Below, one piece after another: positions 5,961 to 58,557 of a stretch of DNA of 64,000 bases. Each line of letters starts with the position of its first letter. Within the stretch, counting starts at the first letter, position 1. The notes below the pieces were generated by a model, which made no database searches, was not told the origin of the DNA, and saw nothing but the letters and a program-made list of their open reading frames with translations. The stretch comes from Octopus vulgaris. Its lineage: Eukaryota. The stretch covers positions 27,094,001 to 27,158,000 of the forward strand of contig OX597826.1 of NCBI GenBank assembly GCA_951406725.2, written 5' to 3'. A program made the translations under genes and the position numbers.

Positions 5961-6379
5961 TATAAACAACTTATAAATAAAAGCAAACGAAAAATTTTCT
6001 AATGCCAAAATATGCCGAAATTGGATACATTGTCCATAGCCATATAATTTATCCCAAATAAGCACACTACTCGAAAAAGCTCGACAGAAAATTCTAAAAT
6101 ATTCCGTTATTGCCATATCGGACCGATTTCAAGGTTAGTTCATATGAACCCTCCCTTCGTCAGTGATAAATGCAGAAAAAGAAATAAATGAAATATTTAC
6201 TCATACCCATGGGTATGAGTAAGTATTGCAATAACGGAATTTTTCAGAAATTTCTGTCGAGCTTTTTCGAATAGCGTGCTTATTTGTGATAAATTATATG
6301 GTTATGGACAATGTGTCCAGTTTTGGCATATTTGGCATTAGAAATTTTTTCGTTTGCCCTTATTTATAAGTTGTTTATA
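5961..6379. repeat. Fold-back element (~157-bp inverted arms) containing a hammerhead; PLE pLTR-like
   Basis: 5961-6117 is the reverse complement (diverged) of 6223-6379. Perfect 26-bp palindrome TTACTCATACCCATGGGTATGAGTAA at 6197-6222. Right end runs directly into (TA)n. Confidence 0.85.
6116..6168 (-). ncRNA. Type I hammerhead ribozyme motif (slightly decayed)
   Basis: Minus strand reads TATCA-CTGACGA-AGGgagGGTTCatatGAACtaaCCTT-GAAA-TCGG-TC-CGATA. Core intact, GUC site, one mismatch in helix I, helix III loop near-palindromic (T/C)CGG. Confidence 0.7.
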
Positions 6380-6554
6380 TATATATATATATATATATAT
6401 ATATATATATATATATATATATAAATAAAAAGAATTCCAACCTTGTCTGATTTTCACGTTTTATTTACAATCTTATAATGATATATTATAAGATAATATA
6501 TTATAATTGAATAAAATAAAATGAAATAGTAGAATGTTAAATATTCATTCTGAT

Positions 6555-6599
6555 TGAACTAGTACTTTCATGCATTGAATTCTGCAATCTTCGGGTTCA
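6555..6599 (-). ncRNA. Minimal type I hammerhead motif with CCGAAGA core variant
   Basis: Minus strand reads TGAAC-CCGAAGA-tTGCAgaattcaaTGCAt-GAAA-GTAC-TA-GTTCA: 5-bp helix I, 4-bp helix II, palindromic GTAC helix III, CUA site. Lies in a ~200-bp element (6425-6615) between (TA)n tracts with downstream AATAAA. Confidence 0.7.
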
Positions 6600-6728
6600 T
6601 GTAGTAGTGTTGATATATATATACATACATACATACATACATACATACATACATACATACATACATACATACATGCATATATATATATATGTATATATAA
6701 TATATATATATATATATATATATATACA

Positions 6729-7007
6729 CAAGGTGGCTCAAAAGTAGGTTTACAGTTAATCAACTATCTCTTGATGCAGATCGGAATTTGTGCCGCACTG
6801 TGTGTGTCACAATGTTCTCAAAAGGTTTGATGAATGTTGCAGTGCTCGAAGAGGATATTTTGAGCATCTGTGGAATTAAAAATTGTCTGGTTAAGATGTG
6901 CATAAATAATATGATTGTAATATAGAAATTTAAATGTGATTAAATGTTTTTAAAAGAAATTTTAGGTGCCTACGTGATAAATGTAAACCAACTTTTGGGC
7001 CACCCTG
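6729..7007. mobile_element. Tc1/mariner-superfamily MITE
   Basis: ~26-bp TIRs CAAGGTGGCTCAAAAGTAGGTTTACA / TGTAAACCAACTTTTGGGCCACCCTG, inserted in (TA)n. Confidence 0.85.
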
Positions 7008-7107
7008 TATATAATATATATATATATATATATATATATATATATATATACACATGCATACCTACATACATACATACATACATATAATAATAATAATAAT
7101 AATGATA

Positions 7108-54480: not shown

Positions 54481-54779
54481 ATTAGGAAAATTGCACCACT
54501 TCTCCACCGACATCCCGATCATCATCATCATCGTCGTCGTCGTCATCATCATCATCATCATCATCATCATCATCATCATTTCTTTTATTTATGCCGTGTG
54601 CCATGTATTCTCGCTTTCATTAGTTCTTGTGACTGCACCATTCATACATTTTTTTATTATTCCATTCTATGTGAATCGTCACACATTAGGTCTGTTTTTG
54701 TATTGTCCTCTTCATCTGTCATTCTTCTGGATAGTAATACAAACTATCACCATTATTATTATTGTTGTTATTACAACTA

Positions 54780-55660
54780 GTATTAGGCGAACTGCGGGAA
54801 TCGTTAGAGCGTAAAAGACAATATATTGCGGCATTTCTTTCAGGCCTTTACTAACACATTGCAAATTCCACGGAGATCAATTTCGTTTTTCTTCATATCG
54901 TGAGCTGCTAAAATAATCAGACTGGAGTCGATTGAATCAACTTCATTCCTTGCTCAATAAATATTGCTGGATCTGCGCCAAAATCAGAGAAAAAAAAGAC
55001 ATGGTTAATATTAAATTGGAGATAATTTTAAAAATAGGAAAATATGTTGAAAAATTTAGGAAATTTAAAATTAGAAGCAAAAAAACAAATATTATTATTA
55101 TCGTTATTAATATGATTAGCAAAATCGTTATCGCACCGGAAAAGGTGTTGAGCAGCATTTTAAAAGGCGGCGAGTTAGTAGACATCTTTGCATACCTGAC
55201 AAAATGTTTATCAGCATTTCGTCCAGCATTAAGTTCAGAATTCAGATTCCGCCTTGGTCGATTTTGCATTTCATCCTTTTGCAGTTGATAAATTAAGTAT
55301 GATCATTTACGGTCGATGTAATTGTCGTAGCCCCTCTCCTGAAAACTCTGACCATGACCCAAAGCTCAAACCATTATTATTATTATTATTATTATTATTA
55401 TTATTATTATTATTATTATTATTATTAATATTATTATTATTGTTATTATTATTATTATTATTATTTAGCGAAGTGGTATAAAAGAATAGTTATAGCGTCG
55501 AAATAGAAACGTGTTATTTTCTCAGGCCCTGCATATTTTAAGTTCAAATCCTCCGAGGTCAATTTTACACTGAAGCCTACGACATGGGCATACTTAAGTA
55601 ATGGAATCGATGGAGGGGACAACCCAACTCCCAGCAACATTGCTGGACTTGTGACTAGAT
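54780..55660 (+). mobile_element. Three old family-B SINE copies
   Basis: Degenerate GGCGGCGAGTT.., TTTCATCCTTTT..GATAAATTAAGTA and AGTTCAAATCCTCCGAGGTC motifs. Confidence 0.55.
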
Positions 55661-56730
55661 TAGAAGCAATCATCATCATCATTATCATCATCATAATCAC
55701 CAGTATTCTCTCCCTACGCGACATCAGTTACCACTTCCTGAGCAGCTTAGCAATAATAATCAGACGTCGCGACGCTTTCAAAAGTCGCTTTCAAGAAGAA
55801 GCAAGCATTATACATGACTTCACTTTTTAATCCTTCTTAAGAAAATTTCCTAATCCTATATCTTGGATAATTGATTAAATTAAATTCTGATTAAATAATC
55901 AACATAAAAATGAAAAGCAAAAAAAAGACAAAACAAAACAAATAGAAAACACGCACATAATGGAAATTTTTTTAAAAGAAATCAGTATTAAATACGAAAT
56001 AAGAGTCTTAATGGCATTATTGTCAGTATCATCATCATAAACATCATCATCATCATCATCATCATCATTATCATATTCATAATCATCGTCGTCGGCGTTA
56101 TCATCATCATCATCATCATCATCATCATTATTATCGTCGTTGTCGTCGTCATCATCATCATCATCATCATCGTCGGCGTCGTTGTCGTTGCCGCTGTCGT
56201 TGTCATCATCATCATCATCATCATCATCATCTTCATCATCATTAACGTCGTCGTCATCATCATTATCATCATCATCGTCGTCGTCGTTGTCGTCGTCATC
56301 AACATCATCATCATCATCATTACAATAATCATCATAAAAGGCTGCGAATTGGCTGAAACGTTACAGCACTGGACAGAATACTTAGTGGCGTTGAATAGCA
56401 ATTGAGGTGAGAGAGTAAAACAAAGGTGGCGGAAGCAGGTGCTGCATGAATGCATTTCCGGTTTGATATACAGACATCTATTTTCTGGAAAATACATTTT
56501 TTTAAACGAAATTTTGCTGAGGGAGATTTTCTATGAAGTGCAATGAGATTATGGTGATAAATTGTGAAAGTGATGACTTCGGGACAAGATGAGTTCTTCC
56601 TGATCACAAGGTTCCGAATTCAGTCTCATTGCATGACAGCTTGGGCAAGTGTCTTCCACTAGAGCACCGAGTCATCCATAGCTTTGGGAAGAGATTGGAT
56701 AGATGGAAATAGGAAGTAGCCCGTCATATA

Positions 56731-57700
56731 TTGGGTCATCCCATAAATGATGCGGTTTTTTATCCTTTATTTTTCAAAATTAAGGAAAACAGAGTTCACC
56801 TTCTACAATGCGCTTCCATCTATCTGGTAGACGTGCATGGCCCCTCTTTCAAAATTCATTTGTCCGTGACGAAAAACATTCTCCAGTCCTGTTCTGACCT
56901 CGTCTACAGAATTCATATTTTTTTCCATCCAAATGATTTTGAAGAGTGCGGAATAAATGATAATCAGCAAATATGGTGGTTGGGGCATCGTTTCCCATTC
57001 AAACTGCTTCAGCCTTTGGAATGCCATCCTCGACGTATGTAGCCAAGCATTATCCTGATGGAAGAACACCTTTTGCCTTGAAACTAAAGATTGTTTTTCT
57101 AGCGCTGACATTTTTTTGCTTGGAATAGATTTCGTTTGTTATCGCTTGGTTAGGGTTTAAAAGTTCAAAGTGAACTAAACCTTTCATATCCCACCAAACA
57201 GATAACAACACCTTACTTTGGTGAAGATCTTTAGCCTAAGGATCTTCAATAGCCGGTGTTTCTCCTTTATCATTGGGCGCTTGACATTTTTGTAGAGAAC
57301 CCATTTCTCGTCACCAGTTACTATTCGGTTCAAGAAAGGTTCATACGTGATAGGTGACAGCAAAGAAGAACACACATTCACTCTTTGCGCGCGATAAGAC
57401 TACGAAAGTTTGCGAGGAACCCATTGACCCAATTTGCTGACTTTTCCAATGGCATTTAGGTATCGATGAATAGTTGAATGATCAAATCCAAGATTCTCTG
57501 CTAGTTCCTCGACAGTTACGATGGGATTTTGTTCAAGCAGGGTTTGCACGACGTCCTCGTCGAGCTCTACAAATCTTCCAGGGAGATGCTAGTCTTCTAG
57601 GCTGTAGTTTTCGACTCGGAATTTCCGGAACCACCATTAACACTGGCTTACGCTTATTGTCCAATCCTTATATATTGCATTAATATTCTTCGCACTTTCC
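56731..57700 (-). mobile_element. Degenerate mariner transposon (transposase pseudogene), one TIR retained
   Basis: Minus-strand motifs WVPRKL, FLNRIVTGDEKWVLYKN, FHQDNA, QFEWETMPQPPY with stops and frameshifts. Terminus TA|TTGGGTCATCCCATAAAT is inserted at the TA site of a family-A SINE (56560-56728). Confidence 0.9.
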
Positions 57701-58557
57701 GAAGTCGTTTGGAGGCTGTGGTTTAATCCAATGGCGATTTTGCTAAATAAATTTACTCTTTAGAATTTCAAGCTATTTTTACGTAATTTTGGTAAATATA
57801 TCTGTTAAAATGAGAAGTCAGTGATATTTTCCCTTTTATTTACTTTTTGATGGGTTCTTAAATCACTTATAAACATCTTCCACGCTGCAATTAGGGTTAT
57901 TTTCATTTTTGCGTGACTTAGACTACAATATATTCACTACACCCTGATATTAAACTCGGCCCTGTTGAGGCTACCTTGAGCGGTTTTAGTTGAACTTATT
58001 TTTATTAAGTCTAGAATGCACATTTGCAGAACCACTGAACTACGAGGACACAAACAAACCAAAGCCGAGCGTCAAACGGTGATTGGTTAAAACACAATCA
58101 CAAACACACTGGCAAGCATACATGCAAACACACATGCAAACATACACACATACCACTCATATATGTGTGTGTATATGTATATATATATATATATATATAT
58201 ATATATATAAATAACAAAGTCACTTTGATCCGTGTAGGAGAGGTGCAGCCAGAGGGTAGGTGTCCTTAGAGGTAAAAAAAAATCCAATGTCCGTCGAGGA
58301 AAGGTAAGAGTTGGTAGTGGTAGAATATAGGATTAAAGTGAGACCACGTGAGCGCGTGATAAATAACGGGAAAGTTTACGAAAATAAACAAAAGACGAAG
58401 GCAGGTGGAGTACAAACAAACAAATGTATTAGTATAGCGCTCAGGAATAGAAATAGAAAAAGTCTTTTACGTTTCGAGCCTACGCTCTTCGCTATGATAG
58501 ATTGTTAGCTCCTACACGCATTTTTTTCTCTCCTTGTTTTTTTCTGTGTATCTTTCA

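Follow-up and report, generated by a model that had tools for sequence, protein, structure and literature searches.

We analysed a 64-kb window of the Octopus vulgaris genome (2.8 Gb, 227 contigs), at positions 27,094,001-27,158,000 of contig OX597826.1, which contains eleven hammerhead ribozyme motifs; microsatellites make up ~27% of the window. The motifs had been recognized in an earlier reading of the sequence (the original prediction), and each of the eleven coordinates given there was found to correspond to a hammerhead-shaped motif of type I whose helix III is palindromic or nearly so (five on the plus strand and six on the minus strand), the one placed at 6116 having a true extent of 6110-6169. 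Comparison of the window with itself using BLAST identified three inverted pairs (15979/16623, 26179/26547 and 49474/49593), and the eleven motifs therefore represent just eight insertions. These fall into seven families (A-G), each repeated genome-wide, where at least six had been proposed. With a probability of roughly 85%, the motifs represent hammerhead-containing 3′ ends of Penelope-like elements (PLEs) and of short non-coding units that likely use the same enzymes, and most copies are likely inert. The insertions, their motifs and two remnants are listed below, with exact copies counted genome-wide.

5869..6385 (arms 5869-6212 minus, 6224-6385 plus): family B insertion, non-coding unit of ~498 bp in two inverted arms, each of which ends at (TA)n; 683 exact copies
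6110-6169, minus: family B hammerhead, core intact, one helix I mismatch
6428..6612, minus: family C, 5′-truncated 3′ end of an apparently intact Neptune-type PLE, ~185 nt (13 nt, hammerhead and tail), flanked by (AT)n/(ATGT)n and (TA)24; 1,721 exact copies
6555-6599, minus: family C hammerhead, same as the commonest genome variant (U4C core)
15850..16960 (inverted arm of 0.84 unit minus, forward arm of 1.48 units plus): family D insertion, ~474-490-bp non-coding unit, (TA)n at both ends; 128 exact copies
15979-16087, minus: family D hammerhead, one helix I mismatch
16623-16731, plus: family D hammerhead, intact
19710..19860 (boundaries approximate), minus: family E, 3′ end of a Hydra-like coding PLE; 7,366 exact copies
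19810-19856, minus: family E hammerhead, helix II of 2-3 bp capped by a GNRA loop, one helix I mismatch
25652..25720, plus: decayed hammerhead of a further repeat family (25658 in the original prediction), with an intact core box but erosion of helix III and of the 3′ arm of helix I
26107..26825, both strands: family A insertion 1, two 3′ ends of an old Hydra-like PLE in inverted orientation; 287 exact copies
26179-26237, minus: family A hammerhead, helix II damaged
26547-26602, plus: family A hammerhead, A6G
31410..32069, plus: family F, old non-coding unit of ~547 bp present in ~1.2 copies, flanked by (ATCT)n and (CA)n; 5 exact copies
31848-31910, plus: family F hammerhead, A9G
46780..47067, plus: family G, 0.6 copy of a ~479-bp non-coding unit following (TA)n, its 3′ end cut off by an unrelated insertion; 74 exact copies
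46887-46948, plus: family G hammerhead, same as the commonest genome variant
49251..49696, both strands: family A insertion 2, inverted pair
49474-49529, minus: family A hammerhead, helix II base damaged
49593-49648, plus: family A hammerhead, C3U and A6U
58417..58562: family H remnant (58462 in the original prediction), minimal hammerhead with its core broken by an inversion junction, from a family with U at core position 6

The hammerhead motifs are real

Two descriptors were applied, one strict and one relaxed and scored (cut-off score ≥16), the relaxed one being tuned on this window. The strict descriptor gave three matches in the window and none in 20 of 20 local dinucleotide shuffles, while the relaxed descriptor recovered nine of the eleven motifs (19810 and 49593 were missed) and gave no match in 20 shuffles or in the reversed window. 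The CYGANGA box was kept in 8/11 motifs when U4C was allowed, core mutations were present in three (26547, A6G; 31850, A9G; 49593, C3U and A6U), and every fold criterion was passed by 6555, 16623 and 46887. Rfam reported no hammerhead in the window at its gathering threshold and none among the matches listed (150 of 456 weak ones). A scan for hammerhead parts in any order, which would capture permuted forms, requires an unbroken CYGANGA and is blind to split cores; it gave a single long-gap, chance-like match at 25817.

Genome-wide, copies were counted with exact core-plus-helix patterns in which helix II was left free for families A-G, and the reversed control gave 0 for each. The families repeat a conserved core, and helix II pairs are kept in families B, D and G by pair-preserving changes, which were taken from variant tables with no formal covariation statistic: GTAC/GTAC to GCAC/GTGC between subfamilies of G, AGGG/CCCT to AGAG/CTCT in B, and in D G-C to A-U at the pair adjoining the core and A-U to G-C at the next. 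The U4C core variant is common in families C, D and E. Taken together, these data demonstrate that the motifs are not chance folds, and neither outcome that the original prediction had named as refuting it (a comparable hit rate after shuffling, or families without a conserved core and compensatory pairing) was seen.

In families A, C and E, the G10.1-C11.1 pair at the helix II base is replaced by a 1x1 mismatch or a variable pair: family C has T.T, family A has A.A or C.A, and in family E an A stands opposite any base. Family E has reached its 7,366 exact copies despite a helix II of 2-3 pairs and a GNRA loop.

Three remnants had also been proposed. The one at 25658 was confirmed as a decayed member of a further family (271 candidates; four other loci were inspected), and the one at 58462 belongs to family H. 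The third, at 20761, was unsupported, with no matches to a repaired-core pattern and no copy in a 600-kb genome sample.

The suggestion that nearly all motifs abut microsatellites did not hold. The nearest (TA)6 lies 79-672 nt away, and the distance to any microsatellite is as for random sites (median 105 nt). Proximity to (TA)6 is nonetheless above random (9/11 motifs within 300 nt, versus 30% of control sites), because the ends of the elements adjoin such tracts. The proposed targeting of AT sequence was borne out by element ends at (TA)n tracts, except in family F, which ends in (CA)n.

Coding parents of families A, C and E

As had been stated, the window itself holds no visible PLE coding sequence: tblastn with two PLE open reading frames (ORFs) gave no window match at E<0.01. 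Among the 75 longest of 105 window ORFs, no reverse transcriptase (RT) or GIY-YIG family was detected, one sub-threshold zf-RVT match was found (E 0.0097), and no host gene was identified.

The parent of family C was located elsewhere in the genome, as tandem 4,271-bp units of which two adjacent ones differ at a single site. ORF2 matched RVT_1 with E 2e-6 (27.9 bits, under the cut-off of 29.6) and GIY-YIG with 24.9 bits (over the cut-off of 22.6), and its linker reads C-X4-C-xx-C, within the CX2-5CxxC pattern of endonuclease-positive (EN+) PLEs. The tandem units form pseudo-long terminal repeats with the hammerhead near the 3′ end, and inverted 5′-truncated copies are also present. Family C is the 3′ end of this apparently intact and young element, which is Neptune-type as judged by its motifs.

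The same parent (L123:1118-4716 minus; also L124, L125, L136 and L138) has two ORFs that overlap by ~90 nt. The overlap contains a seven-T run in register for a -1 frameshift, kept in all six further units checked, with no strong downstream hairpin predicted. ORF1 (430 aa) had no Pfam match; an optional frameshifted ORF1 occurs in PLEs (Craig et al. 2021, PMC8557442).

The parent of family E encodes an RT and a C-terminal nuclease with CxxC and CxH motifs, and RT or nuclease frames with Hydra-like motifs were present in all four of the long inverted pairs fetched. In the linker, F replaces the second cysteine of the Hydra CxCX5C motif in 4/4 long copies. For family A, only decayed coding remnants were found, with 30-38% identity to family E: nuclease remnants upstream and on the same strand at two loci, and an RT remnant in the inverted arm at a third. 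Families E and A are the 3′ ends of coding PLEs, tentatively labelled Hydra-like by motifs.

The PLE origin of the motifs is therefore supported by coding parents for C (intact) and E and by coding remnants for A. By contrast, the view that all motifs derive from non-autonomous derivatives has to be revised, since six of the eleven (families A, C and E) are 5′-truncated or inverted 3′ ends of coding PLEs.

Non-coding units of families B, D, F and G

The remaining window families are built from non-coding units with periods of ~498 bp (B), 474-490 bp (D), 479 bp (G) and ~547 bp (F). Those of B, D and G resemble retrozymes in being low-GC tandem units with one type I hammerhead each, and they resemble PLE-mobilised units in having two fixed 3′ ends (a tail), a (TA)n target and inverted arms. 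None of the window copies of B, D and G has two hammerheads in direct tandem. In a set of loci made up of pattern matches and chosen close pairs, with duplicate loci dropped, and hence not random, 102 of 120 arms ended at one of two fixed unit positions, mostly followed by (TA)n. Among 47 inverted two-arm insertions, a long end was combined with a short end in 34 and two short ends in one, and 12 had an unclassifiable end. This two-end footprint matches the "tail" of PLEs, which for a PLE of the green anole was attributed to two internal RT start sites (PMC11167929). Because the ends run into (TA)n, target-site duplications are not readable. No PLE ORF was found beside the fetched copies of B, D, F and G, for which no genome-wide partner search was made. 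These observations suggest that families B, D, F and G are retrozyme-like units that likely borrow PLE enzymes.

The idea that the two arms of one insertion are two RNA variants held together by the palindrome was mostly unsupported, as the distance between the arms is usually below the family median; possible exceptions (L179, L147 and L127) are perhaps alignment effects. Recurring differences between the first and last tandem unit were found mainly at aligned 3′ ends or in one divergent subfamily.

A variant of this explanation, which would modify it and which we consider possible though not favoured, is that B, D, F and G are true retrozymes, with hammerhead cleavage and ligation producing RNA circles of ~480-550 nt that a PLE RT copies for more than one round. 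Arms exceed one unit in 41 of 119 cases (maximum 2.15 units), with 5′ starts spread round the unit, and copies within one insertion are usually closer than the family median; in family D, tandem units share 153 non-majority alleles against 110 differences. The same DNA pattern would nevertheless arise from uncut multimeric transcripts or template jumps. Four D and G units fold well as circles (z -3.6 to -6.6), although antisense strands also fold well (z -3.4 to -4.4). Circles have been demonstrated for retrozymes of coral, mussel and axolotl (Cervera 2020, PMC7229834), whereas the anole PLE uses unprocessed RNA in vitro, with no RNA-seq ends reported at the cleavage site (PMC11167929), and only one of nine Xenopus dimers was cleaved in vitro (10.64898/2026.07.22.740005).

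Insertion, cleavage and possible effects on the host

In the preferred explanation, insertion of PLEs and of their non-coding passengers is modelled on the anole element as characterized in vitro. The GIY-YIG domain would nick each strand of a (TA)n tract. A dimeric RT would initiate at two fixed positions, one for each DNA end, that lie 85-260 nt downstream of the site of hammerhead cleavage, and would copy across the uncut (or re-ligated) hammerhead until falling off. For the anole PLE (PAc), two RT start sites and extension of both strands were observed, and hammerhead cleavage was not needed in vitro (Frangieh 2024, PMC11167929). As the hammerhead lies just upstream of the start sites, even very short copies would retain it, and this alone could explain the huge number of motifs.

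Several observations weigh against this explanation. No coding partner was matched by shared sequence to families B, D, F, G or H, so that their link to PLEs is the insertion footprint, which was mapped on loci chosen as described above. The clade labels come from motifs and not from a tree, and the family E linker has F at Hydra's second cysteine. The tails of ~85-120 nt are longer than the published 30-40 bp, and family F ends in (CA)n and not in (TA)n. Finally, a multimeric or circular template, which was not observed, would be required for arms that reach 2.15 units.

None of the eight helix III sequences was predicted to fold as a hairpin alone, and their self-duplexes were favourable (-1.7 to -15.1 kcal/mol), in agreement with the dimer-type helix III that had been proposed. 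Such a helix III would limit cleavage to tandem source transcripts, probably with the help of protein, with none in lone genomic copies. In the three inverted pairs (six motifs), 44-109 nt of each motif was predicted to pair with the antisense arm in either transcript strand. Published metazoan PLE hammerheads showed no cleavage in vitro as monomers and weak cleavage as dimers (PMC4209133), and the anole motif needed protein while its mutants still inserted (PMC11167929). Most lone copies are therefore likely to be inert debris that is unable to cut.

The original prediction had also raised the possibility that sense copies cut intronic pre-mRNA; read in this way, the window would hold a dense load of active ribozymes. 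Eight of eleven boxes are kept, three motifs pass every fold criterion, tens of thousands of such motifs occur genome-wide, and introns of Xenopus hold fewer retrozymes than expected (Li et al. 2026). Nevertheless, helix III needs a partner that lone copies lack, metazoan PLE hammerheads studied previously were inactive as monomers and weakly active as dimers (PMC4209133), no host gene was identified among the window ORFs searched, and the motifs are divided almost evenly between the strands. Cutting of host pre-mRNA by the window motifs thus appears unlikely, because three cores are mutated and six motifs lie in inverted pairs predicted to sequester them, and we regard this reading as improbable. 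Inverted insertions would yield long double-stranded RNA in read-through transcripts, and this may matter more to the host than cleavage.

Density and genome-wide load

To place the window in context, 600 kb drawn from 30 contigs as 60 segments of 10 kb, each at a round-number position (an arbitrary and not a random sample), was scanned with the relaxed descriptor. The sample contained 35 motifs, compared with 1, 0 and 1 in three shuffles and 0 when reversed. This density of one motif per 17 kb (12-25 kb) corresponds to ~163,000 motifs genome-wide (114,000-227,000), and estimates with the strict descriptor were 47,000 when no core mismatch was tolerated and 84,000 when one was. The genome-wide load is thus very large, as had been proposed, whereas the proposed rate of one motif per 5-6 kb overstates it about threefold. 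The sample also contained at least eight further hammerhead families (loci L041, L042, L062, L073, L087, L088 and L090) with other palindromes, long helices II and several inverted pairs.

The window had been called unusually dense, and with nine motifs in 64 kb against 35 in 600 kb it is indeed denser than average, though only ~2.4-fold and with a descriptor tuned on the window itself (p 0.03; 7 versus 27 insertions, p 0.04). It is nonetheless improbable that it represents a special hotspot or cluster, as its density was the reason for choosing the window, the strict descriptor gave 3 matches in 64 kb and 18 in 600 kb, the 80 kb flanking the window holds four motifs (relaxed descriptor), a single 10-kb sample stretch (L073) also holds four, and the seven families are unrelated and of different ages. 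The window is an ordinary sample of a genome-wide PLE footprint. Chance folding in AT-rich, microsatellite-rich DNA, to which the lack of an Rfam hammerhead, the rarity of the hammerhead as the lowest-energy fold predicted for isolated motifs and the unsupported motif at 20761 might point, is refuted to near certainty by the zero matches in shuffled and reversed controls, the pair-preserving changes within families and the placement of motifs in PLE 3′ ends.

Exact copies of the eight families sum to 19,836 with family H (9,572) and 10,264 without it. No report of the hammerhead load of this genome was found in the literature searched, and a 2026 octopus repeat annotation (PMC13282606) contains 0 mentions of ribozyme or hammerhead.

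Family H has a U at core position 6

With at least 9,572 exact copies, family H is the most abundant family found here. Core position 6 was U in 96 of 100 copies among the matches listed, while position 7 takes all four bases, and A6 occurs in only 112 of the 9,572 copies. Helix III of this family is ACGT, and one extra base separates positions 9 and 10.1. No coding parent was found among 17 loci, which share upstream sequence over a few hundred bases at most.

A natural core variant with A6C is known from phage Bcep176 and has strongly lowered activity in Mg2+; the sections of that report consulted do not mention A6U (PMC7151607). A literature search on A6U returned no hammerhead study of that change among the matches listed, and Lunse, Weinberg and Breaker 2016 may cover U6 variants or octopus sequences. 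We tentatively propose, as a reading with somewhat less than even chances, that the genome carries the densest animal hammerhead load yet described (~10^5 motifs) and that family H spread with U6, either as a new active natural core or because spread needs the fold but not fast catalysis. If so, the intact two-ORF Neptune element, together with passengers whose start sites are mapped, would make the role of the hammerhead in PLEs directly testable.

Other sequence in the window

A tRNA-like sequence at 51661-51752 (Rfam tRNA, 34 bits, with a 20-nt insertion) lies directly before a common interspersed repeat; ARAGORN found no gene, and the sequence is probably the head of a short interspersed nuclear element (SINE) or a pseudogene. 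An abundant SINE-like repeat has many copies (8782-9282, 21859-22083, 32725-33136, 35446-37407 and 40668-41723), some with an internal 184-bp duplication. Two copies of a ~555-bp repeat (38758-39312 and 63412-63968) are 91% identical, lie in opposite orientation and each adjoin a long (TTA)n; in both, a CUGACGA box is present but no canonical hammerhead fold. A mariner-type element is represented by rearranged fragments at 232-725 and 4625-5395 (HTH_48 match at 330-698).

Comparison with known systems

The association of hammerheads with PLEs is already published (Cervera 2014, Frangieh 2024, Li 2026); what is new here is the genome-wide load and a family of 9,572 copies with U in place of the conserved A6. 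Like the metazoan PLE hammerheads described previously (PMC4209133), the octopus motifs are of type I with a palindromic helix III, form many families per genome, are mostly single motifs from truncated PLEs and include opposite-strand pairs 100-700 bp apart; family H shares the extra base 9/10.1 and the ACGT helix III. They differ in the mismatch at the helix II base of A, C and E, where the published motifs have G10.1-C11.1, and in the U6 of family H. The searched supplement file of that study names no octopus.

Published counts of minimal motifs are ~2,000 in Schistosoma, ~4,000 in coelacanth and ~9,000 in Xenopus (Cervera and de la Pena 2014, PMC4209133), with further counts of >6,000 in a coral, ~5,000 in a mussel and, in axolotl, whose genome is much larger, up to 120,000 (PMC7229834). 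Against these stand at least 19,836 exact octopus copies in eight families and ~160,000 motifs by the looser descriptor, a comparison that is rough because descriptors and methods differ.

The coding parents resemble the Neptune and Hydra EN+ PLEs (PMC8557442) in the C-terminal GIY-YIG, the Zn-finger-like linker, (TA)n targets, tandem and inverted insertions, a tail at one end and an optional frameshifted ORF1. The octopus tails of ~85-120 nt exceed the 30-40 bp of those elements, the family E linker is without the second cysteine, and the clade is assigned by motifs. With the Poseidon element PAc of the green anole (PMC11167929) the octopus elements share two internal RT starts downstream of the hammerhead, AT-rich targets and extension of both strands. 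In octopus the two ends are known from genomic copies alone and are found also in non-coding units; of the 35 inverted insertions that could be classified, 34 have one of them on each arm.

The non-coding units are similar to non-LTR (long terminal repeat) retrozymes (PMC7229834; 10.64898/2026.07.22.740005), which likewise are rich in AT, carry one type I hammerhead per unit and form short tandems. It has been argued that animal retrozymes derive from PLEs and are non-autonomous (Li, Clavereau and Pollet 2026, 10.64898/2026.07.22.740005), in a survey that includes no mollusc in the part consulted. At 474-547 bp, the octopus units are larger than the 150-450 bp of Cervera (PMC7229834) and within the 51-972 bp of Li (10.64898/2026.07.22.740005). 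Their arrays reach at most ~2 units per arm, they end in microsatellites with inversions where retrozymes have clear target-site duplications, and they are known from DNA alone.

As in the A6C variant (PMC7151607) and a U4C viroid hammerhead (PMC3088659), changes occur in octopus at normally invariant core positions, with U4C common in families C, D and E. Unlike these variants, family H carries A6U, fixed in a family of at least 9,572 copies. Beyond the published systems, the octopus genome thus adds scale (an estimated 114,000-227,000 motifs missed by Rfam) and material for tests, comprising a young Neptune element, passengers with mapped RT starts and the U6 family.

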